Below the pieces are notes generated by a model, which saw nothing but the letters and a program-made list of their open reading frames with translations, ran no database searches and was not told where the DNA came from. Position numbers and translations under genes: made by a program. From Escherichia coli (GTDB lineage Bacteria > Pseudomonadota > Gammaproteobacteria > Enterobacterales > Enterobacteriaceae), in assembly GCF_013315695.1 (NCBI RefSeq), contig NZ_CP054354.1: a DNA stretch of 64,000 nucleotides; one strand, 5' to 3'. Positions 475 through 64,000 of the stretch are shown here, piece by piece; the stretch's first letter is position 1; each line of letters starts with the position of its first letter.

Positions 475-1190
475 GCGCACGTTCACGGGCACTGATCCCC
501 CTCAGCGCAGAACAACAGGCCGCCATGCAGGCGGTGGCTGTCACAGAACAACGTCGTCGTCAGGGACGCACACTTTCAGCATGGCCTTATGCCACCGCTT
601 TCTTTCGCTGCCTGAATGGCAGTCGCCGGATTTCGCTGACCGATCTCCGCTTTTTTGCCCCTGCGCTGACGAAGGAGGAATTTCATGGCAACCGTCTCCT
701 GTGGCTGGCTGCCGTGGATAAACTGATTGAAAGTTTTGGGGAAGTCTGTGTTCTTCCCCTGCCATCCGATGCGGGGCACCGTCTGTTCCCGTCCGTGCCT
801 TTTCGTGAAGGTGAGCGTCGTCGTCAGAAAACCACGCTGACAGAGCAGAAATACAGCCGCCAGCGGGAACGTGAGGCAGAACGACGGGAACTGGAATACC
901 AGACATGTTTTGCTCAGGCGCAGATTGACCTTGCGTTTCATACTCCCGCCACGGTCGGAAGCTGGTTGTCCCGCTGGTCTGGTGTTGTTGAGGAGCATGA
1001 TCTGGAAACGATTTTCTGGGGGTGGTGCGGGCGTTTTCCATCACTGTCATCATTTGACCGGTTTTTCTGGCAGGAGGAACCACTCTGGCGGCTGATTTTT
1101 GAAGCCGGTGAGGCCGGTCGTGGTGCACCGGTACAGGTACGTGCACTTGAGCAGTGGATGATCCCGAACAAGCTGGAGAACGTAATATGA
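471..1190 (+). CDS. psiA: PsiA-like protein
   Basis: 239 aa (same length as F PsiA); translationally coupled to psiB; GGAGG 6 nt upstream of ATG 471. Confidence 0.55.
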
Positions 1191-58247: not shown

Positions 58248-58473
58248 AGAATAAATCCGGTATGTATCGGGTTACGGTATAAGACAGGTGGCTGGTAACA
58301 GGTCTTCAGATAAATATAATTTCATCAGGATATTGATGATGAACATTCATGTTCGGGGTGATTATGAAAACTAAAATATTCCGGTTCCGGAAATATAAAA
58401 AGAAAAACGTCCTGCTGCAAATGATAGTTTCCAGAAAACAAGTGATATTGTTTTTCAGAACTGGAACATTATT

Positions 58474-58809
58474 TTATTTCTTGCCTGTTATTGAAACATG
58501 TCCGGTTATGATCTCCGAATGGCAGGTATCAATAAAATCACTTTTCCCCGATTGTGTGTCAAAGTCAACGTGGGTGAATCTGTGTACATCCTGCCATATG
58601 GTGAAACAGACAGGACAGGTAACAGGTAGTTTACCTTCAGCTATTTTTTCGCAGCTTTCAACCAGTTGCTGCGCCTTGTTGTATCTGACGTTATAGCCAT
58701 TTGTGCAAAGCGTTTCATACCCATGAGCTCCTGTAACTATATGTGTGGCGATTCTTTCGTGGACTCTCCCATTAATTAATAATTGTTCACGTGTTGTGAT
58801 TGTTCTCAT
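58474..58809 (-). CDS. hypothetical protein with CxxC motif, 111 aa
   Basis: ORF in AT-rich stretch; ...CPVCFTIW... Confidence 0.35.
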   Translation of the reverse strand: MRTITTREQLLINGRVHERIATHIVTGAHGYETLCTNGYNVRYNKAQQLVESCEKIAEGKLPVTCPVCFTIWQDVHRFTHVDFDTQSGKSDFIDTCHSEIITGHVSITGKK

Positions 58810-58924
58810 GCCTGTTTCTCAATTGGTCATAACAGAAAATAATCTGCATTCCTGAAAAATATCGCGGTTGTGAAATATTTAATTTTTACCCCCTTTTATG
58901 GGGGATGAAAAGCAGGCTGTCAGG

Positions 58925-59167
58925 CTATAACTGAACGCGGTTTCTGGATTTTGGTGCTAATGTCACATCTTTCCATTCACAGCTGCTTCCGGGAATACGC
59001 TCTTTGCGTCGTATTATACGGGAGTTCTGACACACAATAATTAAGCCATTGTCTGCCGTCTGAAATGGCATTATAGCGATGTTTATATCTTCTGTTGCAG
59101 GAATATAACTGACTTTCTTTTCACATGTATTGGTGTATATGACAACTCTGAATTTTTCTGCGGACAT
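58925..59167 (-). CDS. hypothetical small protein
   Basis: Internal start MSAEKFRVVIY... of ORF 58925..59242; AT-rich stretch. Confidence 0.3.
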   Translation of the reverse strand: MSAEKFRVVIYTNTCEKKVSYIPATEDINIAIMPFQTADNGLIIVCQNSRIIRRKERIPGSSCEWKDVTLAPKSRNRVQL

Positions 59168-59247
59168 TTTCAATCCTCTTTTAAACCAGAATATCCCGTG
59201 AGGGCATTCTTTGTGAAAAAGATGCCGGAAAAATTCCGGCACGGGGA

Positions 59248-60942
59248 TTAAACCTGTTGTGGTTCTGAGTTATCCGGAGCGGTTACCGGTTCGCTGACAT
59301 CCGGAACCTTTTCCGGGGCAGGCATGACCAGTGGACGTGTCAGGGCTGTAAGTCCTTCACCGGATAAACCCACCTCTTTCAGCAGGGAGTCGATGAGCGG
59401 AGCCTGTGTACGGTAAGCCAGAGCGGCGGTTACTGCCTGTTCAGCGAGATTTCCGCCACTTATGTCGGTTGTTGCTGTTTTACCGCGGGTAACACCGCCA
59501 TTCAGACCATCCACCTGAATGATTTTAATACCGTCAATGGATTTCATTGGTTCTGTGGACTTCTCTATGACGGCAGGTAATGCATCCAGCAGGGCAAGAC
59601 GGAAGCGGAGGCTGGTCTGCTCATCCGAAAGCACGTTAATGGCATCGTTCAGTGCGCGCTGTGCTTCTGCTTCTGCCAGACCTTTCTGACGGGTGGCCTC
59701 CGCCAGTTCAATAATTGCTGCTGCCTGGAGTTCGGCTGCTTCTTTTTCAGCCTGTGCGCGAACCGTCAGTTCAACCGCTTTCGTTTCAGCTTCCTGAGCA
59801 GCAGCAATCAGGGCAACCTGTTTGGTACGGTCGGCCTCCGCAGTCTGGCGGGTGGTTTCCACATCCTGCTGGGCCTGTACGGCCTCAGCCAGTGCTTTAC
59901 TTGCCCGGGCTTCTGCCTGTGACTGCTCTTCCGATTTTGCCGCCACGGCAATGGCTCTGGCCTGGCTGGCGATTTCGGTTGCCTGCTGTTGCTCAATTTC
60001 CCGTATGGCCACTTCCCGTTCGGCTTCGACCTGGCGGGTACGCACTATCTGCTGTCGTTCGATTTCGGCTTCCTCTATCTTACGTTCAGCCAGAATTCGC
60101 GCGGATTCTGCTTCACGACGTCGTTCAGCTTCAATAGCAGCAATACTGGCACTCTGCTCTGCCGTACGGGTTTTTACCCGTTGTTGTTGCTCCAGAGTCA
60201 TGAAGGCTTCCTGCTGTTCAATCTCCAGACGTCGGGAGAGTGCATCCCGGTTTTTTTCCCTGATGGCCACTTCAACATCCTGCTCAACTTCGTTGCGTTC
60301 GCGACGACGACGTTCTGTTTCCTGGGTCAGAAGGGTCAGGCCTTCAGCATCAAAGGCATTGTCAGGATTAAAATGTACCCGTGCAGTCTGGTTGAAACTT
60401 GTCAGCGACACACTTTCAAGCTCCAGACCGTTTTTGGATAAGTCTTCCGCAACGGTGTTCTGCACACCCTGAACAAAGTTCTCGCGGGCATCCTGTAAAT
60501 CCTGCATGCTCATTCTGGCCGCCGTGGCCCGTAGGGCATCAACAAATTTATCCTCGACCAGACTACGCAGATCTTCAGGTGTGAGCGTGCGTTGTCCCAG
60601 CGTCTGGGCTGCAGTGGATATTCCTTCGGCTGATGGTTTTACCCGAAGAAAAAAGGCAACGGCAACATCAACACGCATGCGGTCGCGGGTTATGAGACTT
60701 TCAGCCGCTGCACGACTGACTTCCAGCTTCAGGGTGTTCATGTTGACGGGAATTGTTTCGTGAAAAATGGGCATAACAATTGCACCGCCACTCATTACCA
60801 CTTTTTGGCCTCCCAGACCTGTGCGGACAAAGGCCTGCTCTGCCGATGCCCGGCGGTACAGGCGGGCAAATATCAGCCCGATAACGAACAGGGTGAGGAC
60901 CAGCGCTATAACGGTAAACAACCATCCCGGAAGATTAAACAT
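59248..60942 (-). CDS. yqiK: flotillin-like SPFH-domain protein (YqiK-like)
   Basis: 564 aa; N-terminal TM, SPFH region, long Ala/Glu/Gln/Arg coiled coil. Confidence 0.7.
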   Translation of the reverse strand: MFNLPGWLFTVIALVLTLFVIGLIFARLYRRASAEQAFVRTGLGGQKVVMSGGAIVMPIFHETIPVNMNTLKLEVSRAAAESLITRDRMRVDVAVAFFLRVKPSAEGISTAAQTLGQRTLTPEDLRSLVEDKFVDALRATAARMSMQDLQDARENFVQGVQNTVAEDLSKNGLELESVSLTSFNQTARVHFNPDNAFDAEGLTLLTQETERRRRERNEVEQDVEVAIREKNRDALSRRLEIEQQEAFMTLEQQQRVKTRTAEQSASIAAIEAERRREAESARILAERKIEEAEIERQQIVRTRQVEAEREVAIREIEQQQATEIASQARAIAVAAKSEEQSQAEARASKALAEAVQAQQDVETTRQTAEADRTKQVALIAAAQEAETKAVELTVRAQAEKEAAELQAAAIIELAEATRQKGLAEAEAQRALNDAINVLSDEQTSLRFRLALLDALPAVIEKSTEPMKSIDGIKIIQVDGLNGGVTRGKTATTDISGGNLAEQAVTAALAYRTQAPLIDSLLKEVGLSGEGLTALTRPLVMPAPEKVPDVSEPVTAPDNSEPQQV

Positions 60943-60968
60943 AGTGAGAACCTCTGTATATGTCGGGA

Positions 60969-61589
60969 TTAAAGAACATCCGGCCAGGGATTCAGTTCGC
61001 CCAGCCAGCGGGAACCGGAAAGACGGCAGACAATAATCACTTTGTCTCCTCGTCTGAATTCTTTCCCGGCCTCCGGCTCCAGCAACAGGTAATGAACCTG
61101 CCCGAAGCGGTCTGTGAAGCGACCTTCACAGGGGGAACCCGCCACTGCGTGATAACCAGTGATGGTGGCCATACAGCCGATGAATGCCTCCTCGGTGAGC
61201 GCCGTTGTTTCATCACGGGGTAACCAGGGGGCAATCAGTCTGCCGGTGCGGTGTACGAGAGGACATGTCAGCAGCAGGCAAAGTGGTGCAAGGAGAATGT
61301 TCGGAGCAGGAGCCTGCAGCAGATGAATAATAAGACCCTGCAGGAGAATGCCGGATATACCAAAAAAACCTGCCAGCATACAGAGGACGATCAGCAGGGG
61401 GATCCGTCCGATGTTCAGCCAGTCCAGCGCCTCTCCTGTCAGACCCTCCGGTAAATCAGGTGTATCCATAGCTGAAGAGAGGGAGTGTCCGCAGAGCAGG
61501 GCGATAAGTTCAGCGATACCAGTAAGCAGAACAAAAGTCAGGGCTGCCAGATAGGGTGCGTTATACGCGGTAAGTAACGTCAGTGTCAT
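60969..61589 (-). CDS. yqiJ: NfeD-like membrane protein (YqiJ-like)
   Basis: 206 aa; multiple TM segments; immediately upstream of the flotillin gene, the conserved NfeD-SPFH pairing. Confidence 0.6.
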   Translation of the reverse strand: MTLTLLTAYNAPYLAALTFVLLTGIAELIALLCGHSLSSAMDTPDLPEGLTGEALDWLNIGRIPLLIVLCMLAGFFGISGILLQGLIIHLLQAPAPNILLAPLCLLLTCPLVHRTGRLIAPWLPRDETTALTEEAFIGCMATITGYHAVAGSPCEGRFTDRFGQVHYLLLEPEAGKEFRRGDKVIIVCRLSGSRWLGELNPWPDVL

Positions 61590-61855
61590 TTTTCCTCCTG
61601 TGGCAGGTCAGTCAAACAACATTATGGCGTGAAGCTTCCGCTTCTTTAATTGTCAGAAGAAGCATATCGTCAGTCATCAGAAGACAAGGGGATGTCTGCA
61701 GGAGGGGATGATAACAACAGAAGCCTCACGCCGGAATGCGCTTTATGACAACCGGAGAGGACGGATAATCAAAAATGGGACATCCACATCAGCAAACCGC
61801 GATTTGCGAAAAAAAGTCAGCGGAGAGTGGCTGCCGTTGTGGCTGTCCCGGTATT

Positions 61856-62518
61856 TCAGTGTAAAAGCAGACTGTTGTCCATGCCCCATTCCTCTTCCGC
61901 TAAACCTGAATGGCCCACATGAAGAATGCGTGACAGCATATTTCTGCCGCTGCCGTTCAGACTGCATTCGCGCCCGTGTGCGAGCATAAAACCTTCATCC
62001 CGGAATATCTCTTCAACCTCAGACGTGTTGATGGTGGCCGGATGGATTAATGAAAATGCCACCGGTCTGATCATTCTGCCCGTGGTGGAAAAGGTGTCCC
62101 CGGTGCTGTTCAGCTGCAGGATATGACGTTTCCCGGTCTGTGCGCGGGAAAGTGTCTCACTCAGTAACTGGTCATTCCATGCGCACGTGCCAATCTGCCA
62201 TCCCAGACTCCTGCACGTGGCAAGAGCCGAGCGGAAGCGGTACAGGTCGTATAATGCTGCGTTATTGCCACTTTCCAGCAGTGATTTCAGGGTGTTTGCT
62301 ACCGGTATGTCTGAATTGGTGGCCAGCAGTTTTCGCAGGGTAGTGAACTCTTCAGCCATTCCTCTGAACTCGCGCATCTGACGGGCAGTGTCAAGCCAGT
62401 TCAGCAGGTAACGCCGGCGACGCCGTTCGTTGTTTATGTTGTCCGGGGCGGTGGAGAGTGCTTCGAGCATATTCTCCAGTAACAGAATGACAGGGTTTTC
62501 CTGGGATAGAATGGTCAT
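61856..62518 (-). CDS. hypothetical protein, 220 aa
   Basis: ORF only. Confidence 0.4.
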   Translation of the reverse strand: MTILSQENPVILLLENMLEALSTAPDNINNERRRRRYLLNWLDTARQMREFRGMAEEFTTLRKLLATNSDIPVANTLKSLLESGNNAALYDLYRFRSALATCRSLGWQIGTCAWNDQLLSETLSRAQTGKRHILQLNSTGDTFSTTGRMIRPVAFSLIHPATINTSEVEEIFRDEGFMLAHGRECSLNGSGRNMLSRILHVGHSGLAEEEWGMDNSLLLH

Positions 62519-62658
62519 AAAGGCGTCCTGAAAAAATGCCCGACAGCCGCTCTCCGTACACCCTCAGGTGTCACCGGTGCCGGGCATTGTGGAAACAGAA
62601 GGGAAAAAAATCCCGGCCATAAAGGCCGGGAAAAGTCGTCAAATTAAGACAGCAATTT

Positions 62659-63300
62659 TCATGTCAACGCTCCGTCATCAGATACCAGGTGCAGGAGCAG
62701 GGCGATCCTCGACTCCGGCAGAGGCTGTGCATCAAGCCGGAGGAGGTACTGGTAACGCGCTTTTGTCAGCCAGAGGGTGGAGGCAGCATCCAGCTCCTCC
62801 CTGGCTGCCGGATTGAGCGCAGGATCCGGGTACACTTTCATCAAAGACTGAACGATATCCTCCCTGACGGTTTTGATTTCACCGGCCATTTTCACGAAGT
62901 CCAGAAAGGCACTGTGACGGCGAAGGTGAGTGAAGCTGTGGCTTTCGGGGTCTGCTTTCAGGAAAAAGTAACCGGGAAACACGGCGTGTATATGTCGACG
63001 GTAACCACAGACTTTATCCGTGCGGCGGACCTTTTTCAGTATCAGGGGTGTCCAGGGAAGGACGTGTTGTTCGGAAAGCCAGGAAAAGAGATGTTCGCGG
63101 TTTTTGCCGGCAGGGATGTACTGTGCCAGATACCAGTTGCGTTGATGTAATTCACTGATATTCAAAATCCGGAACGCTCCGCGAAAATCGATCCCCGCAG
63201 GGGGGCTTCGATGTTGTTGTGAACGGCGAATACATAAAGCATGTGTCGGAAACAGCGGCTGACCCACGTTCAGCCTGGCCTGCAGTTCTGACAGGCACAT
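62659..63300 (-). CDS. NusG/RfaH-family (NGN-domain) protein, ActX-like candidate
   Basis: 213 aa; WYLAQYIPAGKNREHLFSWLSEQ...HAVFPGYFFLKADPE resembles the NGN domain; lies at the head of the long minus-strand transfer block. Confidence 0.45.
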   Translation of the reverse strand: MCLSELQARLNVGQPLFPTHALCIRRSQQHRSPPAGIDFRGAFRILNISELHQRNWYLAQYIPAGKNREHLFSWLSEQHVLPWTPLILKKVRRTDKVCGYRRHIHAVFPGYFFLKADPESHSFTHLRRHSAFLDFVKMAGEIKTVREDIVQSLMKVYPDPALNPAAREELDAASTLWLTKARYQYLLRLDAQPLPESRIALLLHLVSDDGALT

Positions 63301-63700: not shown

Positions 63701-64000
63701 TATTCAGTGGCTTTTGGGATCCTCGCGGTCCGGAAAGCCAGAAAACGGCAGAATGCGCCATAAGGCATTCAGGACGTATGGCAGAAACGACGGCAGTTTG
63801 CCGGTGCCGGAAGGCTGAAAAAAGTTTCAGAAGACCATAAAGGAAAACCCCCACTATTTTTCCTCGAACTTGGCGGAACGCAGAAAAATAATGGGGGCCT
63901 CACAGAATACGGGATAAGTATATATGAAACCGTACCAGAGATTCAACCCTGTGCAGTGTATAAATACACGGCACAATCGCTCCGCCATAAGCGACAGCTT

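Follow-up and report, generated by a model that had tools for sequence, protein, structure and literature searches.

What is a flotillin-like gene doing, together with its NfeD-like partner, between the transfer regulators and the thin-pilus operon of a conjugative plasmid, and does conjugation depend on the two of them? The question is raised by a 64-kb stretch of DNA (the window, that is, the whole 64,000 nucleotides analysed), in which a yqiJ-like and a yqiK-like gene lie between traC and pilI, oriented as the flanking genes, on an I-complex (IncB/O/K/Z) resistance plasmid. The first-pass annotation had offered two interpretations: that the pair scaffolds the pilus and the secretion machinery, or that it is cargo. 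The reading favoured here, to which we give a probability of about 0.72, is that the pair is a dispensable, selectively maintained accessory module, captured as a unit long ago, and not a component of conjugation or of the thin pilus.

Identity of the gene pair and its surroundings

The features of the region are the following.

62659..63300, minus strand: traB, encoding a NusG/RfaH-like regulator (match to Pfam NusG; NCBIfam RfaH below its cut-off)
62611-62631: strong hairpin with a T-run, after traB (dG -18.1 kcal/mol)
61856..62518, minus strand: traC (220 aa), immediate upstream neighbour of the pair, annotated as traC in relatives; positive regulator of transfer genes
61590..61855, minus strand: traC-yqiJ intergenic region of 266 nt, including the yqiJ ribosome-binding site
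60969..61589, minus strand: yqiJ-like gene; its product is an inner-membrane protein of 206 aa with three hydrophobic helices and, at its C-terminus, an OB-fold of the NfeD type
60943..60968, minus strand: yqiJ-yqiK spacer of 26 nt, as long as that of the chromosomal operon of E. coli
59248..60942, minus strand: yqiK-like flotillin gene (564 aa), from ORF, Pfam, hydropathy and composition
59212..59242, minus strand: terminator-like hairpin between the yqiK stop codon and pilI, GUGCCGGAA-UUU-UUCCGGCAU, then CUUUUUC
58925..59167, minus strand: pilI, first thin-pilus gene and immediate downstream neighbour (Pfam PilI, E 2.6e-31; RefSeq start as in pHUSEC41-1)

The coordinates and minus strand of the two open reading frames were confirmed, and their earlier assignment to an SPFH/flotillin protein and an NfeD-like partner of the YqiJ/YqiK type was borne out by Pfam, by identity to the E. 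coli proteins and by fold search. All four Pfam matches exceeded the gathering cut-offs. In YqiK, these were Band_7/SPFH (PF01145) at residues 35-183 (E 1.3e-18, 68.1 bits, cut-off 23.6) and Flot (PF15975) at residues 402-526 (E 1.3e-38, 132.3 bits, cut-off 27), the latter over the full length of the model (1-124 of 124). In YqiJ, they were YqiJ_N (PF21001, E 8.8e-16) and YqiJ_OB (PF07290, E 1.3e-14). The hydropathy of YqiK showed a sole N-terminal hydrophobic segment, at residues 1-30. The long coiled coil mentioned in the first-pass annotation matches a stretch of 219 residues without Pro or Gly (residues 202-420), rich in E, A, Q, R and K, which make up 65% of residues 196-440; from this composition, we infer that YqiK forms a long coiled coil. 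Concerning YqiJ, the fold search showed an NfeD-type OB-fold beta-barrel at the C-terminus, and a relaxed Pfam search gave only YqiJ families, with no direct match to NfeD (PF01957). The position of yqiJ immediately upstream of the gene for its SPFH partner is that of a short NfeD (NfeD2). A PDB sequence search gave no match for either protein, and the antisense ORFs within the yqiJ/yqiK region had no family match. A reading of the locus as a defence system was discarded, as PADLOC-DB gave no match for YqiJ, YqiK or their neighbours. Taken on its sequence, the plasmid pair is a paralogue of the enterobacterial yqiJ-yqiK operon, an NfeD2/SPFH2 'flotillin' pair, and it is already annotated in databases and labelled on published plasmid maps.

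As to the placement of the pair, the earlier description was right in the common orientation and in the position before the pil operon, but not in naming the NusG-like gene as the immediate upstream neighbour, which is traC. Across the compared 5.2-kb traB-pilI stretch, the window plasmid is 100% identical to pHUSEC41-1. Its TraC shares 37-38% amino acid identity with R64-type TraC, and traC is required for the conjugation of pMS7163B (PMC10286972). The evidence on promoters and terminators is of consensus level only: a coding-strand scan found no terminator-like site in the traC-yqiJ interval of the window, and a sigma-70 consensus scan gave weak matches, not above shuffles (8 found versus 5.5 expected), from which no promoter is claimed. 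Whether the pair had been inserted behind the pil promoter was asked by aligning the 266-nt spacer with the region upstream of pilI in R64 or pH1519-88, and no meaningful similarity was found. An RfaH-type ops element, GGCGGTAGnnTG, was considered as a tie to TraB and rejected, its sole match in the 64-kb window (939-950) having one mismatch and being at chance level.

Occurrence in related plasmids and transfer without the pair

In the prototype plasmid R64 the gene order is traB-traC-traD-pilI and the pair is absent, and a YqiK tblastn gave no match in any of the 1,533 plasmids whose TraC is of R64 type (less than 60% identical to that of the window). So, the earlier remark that the pair stands outside the canonical R64 region is correct, and the pair does not belong to the core R64 tra/pil set, understood as that present in the prototype and its relatives. 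As judged from gene order, the traC-pilI interval is a variable slot, which holds traD in R64 and is empty in the IncI1-type pH1519-88, where traC is directly followed by pilI, while in a Citrobacter plasmid pilL comes directly after traC.

Within the B/O/K/Z clade, the pair is intact in about half (~260) of ~539 plasmids, and the remaining ones show at least four kinds of loss, by deletion with a scar or by an IS cut, these PLSDB counts being inflated by clonal sampling. One kind of loss has its breakpoints at a 10-bp direct repeat, CAGCCCTGAC, with just two copies within the 64-kb window.

61537..61546, minus strand: copy 1 of the repeat, inside yqiJ (codons about 15-18), deletion breakpoint
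59339..59348, minus strand: copy 2 of the repeat, close to the yqiK 3' end, second deletion breakpoint

The 2,198-bp deletion between the repeats is seen in pCT, pMS7163B and pSCU-116-1. Overall, the 144-bp, in-frame scar at the repeat (scar A) replaces the pair in 96 PLSDB plasmids; this may reflect one deletion that was then spread by recombination, instead of recurrent loss. The further loss types are a double-deletion scar (scar B), a cut by an IS66-family element and a cut by IS26. The total of scar-B plasmids, ~70, was estimated from rows taken at even intervals in a YqiK match listing, and the query with the scar-B junction was confounded, as 80% coverage was reached by intact plasmids too. 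The 266-nt traC-yqiJ region is kept in scar-A plasmids, and it is missing in scar-B plasmids and in the divergent plasmid L048 considered below.

These losses bear on the question whether the thin pilus, the Dot/Icm-like T4SS, or both, need the pair as a structural or assembly factor in order to work. The location of the pair within the transfer region, in the same orientation and directly upstream of pilI, its strong conservation and synteny across divergent plasmids, and the finding of the Agrobacterium T4SS in detergent-resistant membranes (PMC8656257) would all agree with such a factor. However, SPFH proteins are unnecessary for the localisation or function of the Agrobacterium T4SS (PMC8656257), the pair is absent from R64 and all R64-type plasmids, roughly half of the plasmids in the B/O/K/Z clade have it deleted or interrupted, and both scar plasmids that were examined still type as conjugative. 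Moreover, pCT and pMS7163B, which carry the 144-bp scar instead of the pair, do conjugate. Plasmid pCT does so on solid and in liquid medium, and its liquid mating is pilS-dependent (PMC4083329), which means that its thin pilus works. Plasmid pMS7163B conjugates experimentally (PMC10286972), its TraC, PilN, PilO, PilP and PilQ proteins are identical to those of pHUSEC41-1, and the traC-pilI slot holds none of its 35 conjugation genes; since the pair is missing from pMS7163B, the TraDIS supplement for this plasmid lists neither yqiJ nor yqiK nor any flotillin.

Since both plasmids conjugate without it, the pair is not required for transfer or pilus function in the donors used, which were E. coli and thus nearly always yqiJK-positive. 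The notion of a needed scaffold is therefore largely refuted for E. coli hosts, and we consider it highly improbable; the alternative of cargo, added to it in the first-pass annotation, was the better-supported half of that interpretation. The scaffold was to be abandoned, according to the same annotation, if the pair were absent from all relatives and its deletion were without effect on transfer or pilus: scar plasmids do transfer, but about half of the close relatives have the pair. It is worth noting that, because the donors were E. coli, almost always with chromosomal yqiJK, redundancy could hide a transfer role of the plasmid pair. The liquid mating of pMS7163B is poor (about 2e-6; PMC10286972), and this could in principle be related to the loss of the pair, though pCT argues otherwise.

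Selection on the pair and its origin

Five intact yqiJK copies display 34 synonymous versus 3 non-synonymous variable sites (binomial P = 2e-17), of which 25 and 3, respectively, are in yqiK, and the pairwise dN/dS among plasmid copies is 0-0.09. L048 is a divergent mosaic plasmid that keeps the traB-traC-yqiJ-yqiK-pilI synteny and has an R64-type PilN (95% to R64) alongside a B/O/K/Z-type TraC. The identity to L048 decreases in the order: YqiK (94%), YqiJ (88%), TraB (80%), TraC (76%), PilI (71%). The dS versus L048 is 0.54-0.76 for traB, traC, yqiJ and yqiK, and the dN/dS of the pair, 0.045-0.11 over a dS of about 0.6-0.75, is below that of traB and traC. In L048, traC overlaps the start of yqiJ by 29 nt, and the hairpin between yqiK and pilI (dG -13.4 kcal/mol, z -3.3) is kept through a compensatory A-U to G-C change. 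As judged by these substitutions, purifying selection on the plasmid copies is strong, and they are not junk. A functionless relic under loss would be compatible with the structural loss types, at least four, and with the pair being intact in only about half of the clade. Nevertheless, it is contradicted by the substitution pattern, both within the clade and in the comparison with L048, and both ORFs stay intact in about 260 plasmids, so that a decaying passenger is very improbable.

The same comparison bears on the view that the pair is a non-essential modulator, co-expressed with traBC, which aids transfer, the pilus, the donor envelope or the host range conditionally. The linkage of the pair to the traB-traC-pilI block, which persists in L048 despite exchange of the downstream pil genes, speaks for it, as do the overlap of traC with yqiJ, the conserved hairpin before pilI with a NusG-like TraB upstream, and a dN/dS below that of traB and traC. 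It is made unlikely by the lack of an ops-like site in the 64-kb window, by the weakness of the Gram-negative flotillin phenotypes known so far, and by the repeated loss of the pair in successful epidemic plasmids (pCT), which indicates that any benefit is small or conditional. The condition proposed for such modulation is a host without its own yqiJK.

Concerning the origin of the pair, the amino acid identity between plasmid and E. coli chromosomal proteins is 82% for YqiK and 55% for YqiJ, and the dS versus the E. coli chromosomal copy is saturated. Plasmid YqiJ and YqiK both fall outside the chromosomal copies of all Enterobacteriaceae sampled; plasmid YqiK is 78-79% identical to any of these, the value for E. 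coli versus Citrobacter being 92%. No chromosomal donor was identified among 100,044 species representatives, where the top matches, from Citrobacter and Superficieibacter, had identities of 82-84% (YqiK) and 62% (YqiJ). A 99% match in a Terrisporobacter assembly was discarded as a contaminant contig (848 bp, 0.7x coverage). In 29 of 29 chromosomal loci examined, yqiJ is upstream of yqiK. The branching outside the sampled chromosomal copies, together with the saturated dS, argues for a capture of the pair as a unit that was not recent, and this would have taken place in the traC-pilI slot of an IncB/O/K/Z ancestor.

Possible role and comparison with known systems

If the pair is, as favoured here, a dispensable and selectively maintained module, it is probably transcribed together with traC, given the traC-yqiJ overlap in L048 and the lack of a terminator-like site between the two genes in the window, and the terminator-like hairpin would separate yqiK from pilI. 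From what is known of the family, YqiK may form an oligomeric scaffold of the flotillin type on the cytoplasmic side of the inner membrane, and YqiJ would be its partner in the membrane. Our best guess is that expression with the transfer regulators would provide extra flotillin scaffolding in the donor inner membrane. The benefit would likely be conditional, in the form of envelope homeostasis or altered surface behaviour, with no essential step of transfer involved. Mutants in the chromosomal yqiK show weak phenotypes (PMC2636767, PMC10434171), so that the function of the family is itself poorly defined.

It is possible, if unlikely, that the pair is host-directed cargo, selected via host fitness through its effects on motility, biofilm or the tolerance of membrane stress. 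Chromosomal YqiK has a reported link to swimming behaviour, and yqiK has been put forward as a possible cause of the drop in biofilm seen on acquisition of an IncK plasmid (PMC7824781), but the biofilm idea was a speculation of those authors. The purifying selection on the pair would fit this view, and so would the fact that the slot elsewhere houses other dispensable genes, such as R64 traD. On the other hand, E. coli is nearly always yqiJK-positive already, and a long-term tight linkage to traBC, rather than to cargo or resistance regions, fits a coupling to transfer somewhat better. A more elaborate form of such coupling, in which the pair would be co-transcribed with traC under TraB antitermination, the hairpin would gate read-through into pil, and flotillin platforms in the donor would aid the assembly or the tolerance of the T4SS and the thin pilus, seems quite unlikely. 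Its effect would be visible in some hosts or conditions only, e.g., yqiJK-less donors, or liquid or gut mating. If true, it would be the first flotillin shown to serve Gram-negative conjugation. A literature search with flotillin and I-complex plasmid terms gave no paper with both among the ranked results.

At present, this is a correctly recognised, already-annotated accessory gene pair. Gram-negative flotillins have almost no firm phenotype, and the plasmid pair offers a natural experimental handle: in a plasmid family of clinical importance, it has kept its linkage to the transfer regulators, it is under stronger purifying selection than those regulators, and isogenic plasmids with it (pHUSEC41-1-type) and without it (pMS7163B, pCT) already exist. 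Were the pair to affect transfer or donor fitness under some conditions, this would tie membrane microdomains to conjugation and help to explain the retention of the pair in some IncB/O/K/Z lineages.

Among the known systems, the NfeD/flotillin operon yuaF-floT of Bacillus subtilis is related, but plasmid YqiK is not an orthologue of FloT (81.5 bits with the equivalog model NCBIfam NF058507, cut-off 700), and the FloT phenotypes, coming from a Gram-positive organism, are not simply transferable to it. The long NfeD forms bear a ClpP-type protease domain, whereas no ClpP-class serine protease domain was found in the 206-aa YqiJ with Pfam at E up to 10, and YqiJ is thus not a member of the long NfeD (NfeD1b) protease family. 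E. coli qmcA-ybbJ and the archaeal stomatin/NfeD pair PH1511/PH1510 are of the stomatin-type (SPFH1) subfamily, unlike the plasmid pair. The HflK/HflC-FtsH cage, an SPFH-family oligomeric membrane scaffold, is the structural paradigm for the enclosure of a membrane patch. HflK/HflC share the SPFH family with plasmid YqiK, but they have no NfeD partner, they belong to a different subfamily, and their bulk faces the periplasm (PMC10434171). R64 traD occupies the same traC-pilI position in an I-complex plasmid and is likewise dispensable, but it is an unrelated single gene for a 188-aa protein of no Pfam family. The E. coli chromosomal yqiJ-yqiK operon, the NfeD2/SPFH2 of Hinderhofer et al. 2009 (PMC2636767), has in common with the plasmid pair the gene order, the 26-nt spacer, the Pfam architecture and a terminator after yqiK; unlike it, the plasmid pair resides in the traBC-pil region of a conjugative plasmid. 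Of 5,426 complete E. coli genomes, 5,423 have chromosomal yqiJK, so that in nearly every E. coli host the plasmid pair comes in addition to a copy already there.

The yqiJ-yqiK pair and its setting

The two genes of the pair, their neighbours and the associated signals were located as follows.

62659-63300, minus strand: traB, NusG/RfaH-like, one gene beyond traC
62611-62631, minus strand: terminator-like hairpin after traB (dG -18.1 kcal/mol; 8 bp, 7 of them G-C; seven Ts follow)
61856-62518, minus strand: traC, directly upstream of the pair
60969-61589, minus strand: yqiJ-like gene, ORF of 206 aa
59248-60942, minus strand: yqiK-like flotillin gene, ORF of 564 aa, starting 26 nt downstream of yqiJ
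59222-59242, minus strand: terminator-like hairpin after yqiK (dG -13.4 kcal/mol; T-run)
61537-61546 and 59339-59348: 10-bp direct repeat CAGCCCTGAC, with only these two copies in the whole window
minus strand: pilI, directly downstream of the pair

The first-pass annotation had proposed a flotillin-like SPFH protein with an NfeD-like (YqiJ/YqiK) partner, and Pfam matches for both ORFs bore this out: Band_7/SPFH (residues 35-183, E 1.3e-18) and the flotillin C-terminal domain (residues 402-526, E 1.3e-38) in the 564-aa protein, and YqiJ_N plus YqiJ_OB (E about 1e-15) in the 206-aa protein, with all four matches exceeding the curated cut-offs. No family match was obtained for ORFs antisense to the pair, and substitutions among relatives were overwhelmingly synonymous in its minus-strand frames. 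The pair had also been placed between the NusG-like gene and the pil operon; this holds on the pilI side, while the adjoining upstream gene is traC rather than traB. The start of traB, annotated in RefSeq relatives as giving either 642 nt (as in the window) or 507 nt (window compared with L002, L006 and L045), is uncertain, because the Pfam NusG match of the long form begins only at residue 55.

Every gene from traB through pilN lies on the minus strand. Concerning transcription, where promoter and terminator evidence is at consensus level only, no terminator-like hairpin was predicted in the traC-yqiJ interval of the window. In L048, a divergent metagenomic contig (ENA ERZ27268043, k141_149405), traC and yqiJ are very likely co-transcribed, judging from a 29-nt overlap of traC with the yqiJ start, and the yqiK hairpin is retained with a compensatory A-U to G-C change. 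TraB scored under the RfaH cut-off, and no site resembling ops turned up near the region. The intrinsic terminator right after the antiterminator-like traB suggests autoregulated read-through; as to the hairpins in general, we infer only that their read-through may depend on TraB.

Many E. coli and Shigella plasmids match the segment 58200-63400 at 100% identity. They are typed as IncI1/B/O replicon, MOBP, MPF_I and conjugative, and among them is pHUSEC41-1, whose 5.2-kb traB-pilI stretch is identical to that of the window. A full-length Rfam PK-repZ match (188.9 bits, 63840-63988, plus strand), the pseudoknot that controls repZ/repA translation in I-complex replicons, lies just past traB at the window end. 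The novelty of the pair is low, since it is already annotated in the identical plasmids ('flotillin family protein' and 'YqiJ family / OB-fold-containing protein') and noted in the literature: yqiJ and yqiK are labelled on Shigella sonnei IncB/O/K/Z plasmid maps (PMC8549364), and plasmid yqiK was speculated to reduce biofilm formation (PMC7824781). Our literature search found no paper studying yqiJ-yqiK on these plasmids.

A variable slot and repeated loss

The clade defined by TraC identity of at least 80% comprised 539 PLSDB plasmids (IncB/O, K1, K2, Z), and 1,533 further ones carried an R64-type TraC (about 37% identity). YqiK tblastn matched 492 plasmids in total. Near-full-length YqiK was present on 268, those sampled being all at least 98.8% identical; the remaining enterobacterial matches were remnants, and some 50 distant ones fell on rhizobial, Paracoccus and Variovorax replicons, mostly non-mobilizable. 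By this search, the R64-type plasmids thus lack the pair. The order in R64 is traB-traC-traD-pilI, in agreement with the earlier statement that the pair is foreign to the canonical R64 region. An 848-bp contig (0.7x coverage) in the assembly of Terrisporobacter mayombei DSM 6539 matches the 3' part of plasmid yqiK at 99% identity and almost certainly represents E. coli plasmid DNA contaminating a Firmicute assembly.

The slot between traC and pilI is variable: traC is followed by pilI in pH1519-88 and directly by pilL in a Citrobacter plasmid. The slot filled by yqiJK in the window holds traD in R64 (L047, 117349-117915; 188 aa, no Pfam family) and is empty in other IncI1-type plasmids such as pH1519-88. 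The adjoining pilI-pilL stretch (58250-59250 in the window; also L003, L011 and L012) is a second variable slot: its GC content is low, at 39-42% compared with 52-61% in the surrounding DNA, a 111-aa ORF lies there in the window and other hypothetical genes, some on the opposite strand, in the relatives, and no R64-like pilJ or pilK was found between pilI and pilL in these four loci.

Only 257 of the 518 plasmids matching the pair's DNA kept at least 80% of it. In scar A, found in 96 plasmids including pSCU-116-1, pCT and pMS7163B, a 144-bp in-frame ORF fuses the initial ~18 codons of yqiJ to the final ~30 of yqiK, the junction falling exactly on the direct repeat. It is flanked by differing traC alleles (pMS7163B TraC equals the pHUSEC41-1 protein; pCT TraC is 93.6% identical to that of the window). 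The ORF (pMS7163B/L045 13620-13763; L002 3501-3644) is intact, has kept its ribosome-binding site and start codon from yqiJ and its stop codon and terminator from yqiK, and is annotated as a 47-aa 'hypothetical protein', WP_072105535.1; it is a fusion artefact, not a gene family. Scar B results from two deletions, which left a 181-bp internal yqiK piece and removed the entire traC-yqiJ spacer; sampling the YqiK tblastn matches at even intervals gave an estimate of about 70 plasmids with it. Other losses were truncation of yqiJ by an IS66-family insertion and of yqiK by IS26. Because both genes leave remnants, the scars and truncations are losses from a pair-carrying ancestor and not pre-insertion absence.

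Transfer, selection and exchange of pilus genes

The first-pass annotation had considered that the pair might scaffold the pilus and secretion machinery or be cargo. TraC, PilN, PilO, PilP and PilQ of pMS7163B are identical to the pHUSEC41-1 proteins, yet this plasmid has scar A. It conjugates on surfaces, with poor liquid mating (about 2e-6), and the 35 required genes in its saturating TraDIS screen were traBC, tra/trb, nikAB and some leading-region genes (PMC10286972). pCT likewise carries scar A; it transfers in liquid and on solid medium, and its thin pilus works, since pilS inactivation reduces liquid mating (PMC4083329). The pair is thus dispensable for transfer, at least in E. coli donors, which almost always have chromosomal yqiJK. 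These plasmids, together with the dispensability of Agrobacterium SPFH proteins for T4SS localisation and function (PMC8656257), make a required scaffold unlikely, and 'cargo' is nearer the truth.

That the pair is a decaying passenger is likewise unlikely. Among five intact copies (the window and four IncK2/Z plasmids, 98.7-99.4% nt identity), 34 differing sites were synonymous and 3 non-synonymous (expected synonymous fraction 0.255; binomial P = 2e-17). A search of 5.8 billion proteins gave a single intermediate YqiJ, of 88% identity, on L048 (15.6 kb; order traB-traC-yqiJ-yqiK-pilI-pilK-like-pilL...pilR), where the conservation of YqiJ and YqiK, the best-conserved part of the traB-pilI block, also argues against junk.

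Comparison of L048 with the window (protein; aa identity; dN/dS; dS)
TraB; 80%; 0.22; 0.54
TraC; 76%; 0.21; 0.71
YqiJ; 88%; 0.11; 0.58
YqiK; 94%; 0.045; 0.76
PilI; 71%; 0.10; 1.54
PilL; 50%; not meaningful; saturated
PilM; 32%; not meaningful; saturated
PilN; 43%; not meaningful; saturated

Compared with R64, PilN of L048 was 95% identical and TraC only 38%, and no PLSDB record exceeded 83% nt identity to its traB-pilI block. For these reasons L048 is a fragment of an undescribed mosaic I-complex plasmid, joining B/O/K/Z-type traB-traC-yqiJ-yqiK-pilI to R64-type pil genes, and the pair stayed with the traBC-pilI block during the exchange of pilus structural genes. Separately, traC of the window differs from that of the otherwise near-identical L009-L012 by dS 0.18-0.27 and 17-23 amino-acid changes, with far less diverged flanks (traB dS 0-0.007, yqiJK dS 0.02-0.05), which suggests either mosaicism by recombination or a diversifying pressure acting on the regulator.

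Domain architecture, operon arrangement, coding-sequence selection and dispensability for conjugation (E. coli donors) are established here. A host-directed or conditional accessory function ranks first and a non-essential modulation of transfer close behind, both ahead of required scaffold and decaying passenger. What is new, and modestly interesting, is that strong purifying selection and long-term traBC linkage coexist with frequent clean loss; the natural deletion plasmids are ready-made for testing the pair's role.

Relation to known SPFH/NfeD systems

By analogy with the SPFH/NfeD families (PMC2636767, PMC10434171), YqiK would have an inner-membrane anchor and a mainly cytoplasmic body and would oligomerise into flotillin-type assemblies, and YqiJ would partner it in the membrane by way of the OB domain.

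Chromosomal yqiJ-yqiK was present in 5,423 of 5,426 complete E. coli genomes, 227 of which (4.2%) additionally had the plasmid pair. In each of the 29 chromosomal loci compared, Burkholderiaceae included, yqiJ lay directly 5' of yqiK. The closest chromosomal copies (GTDB, one genome per species) reached 82-84% for YqiK and 62% for YqiJ (Citrobacter, Superficieibacter). Crude NJ trees placed plasmid YqiJ and YqiK outside all sampled Enterobacteriaceae copies and inside Serratia, and YqiK identity was 92% between E. coli and Citrobacter against 78-79% between the plasmid and any of them. Given this branching and these identities, the two genes were captured together, in the distant past or else from a lineage outside the sample. 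The E. coli chromosomal operon shares with the plasmid pair the gene order and the 26-nt spacer, but their proteins are 82% (YqiK) and 55% (YqiJ) identical, synonymous sites are saturated, and chromosomal yqiK, like its plasmid counterpart, ends in a terminator of its own, although a different one.
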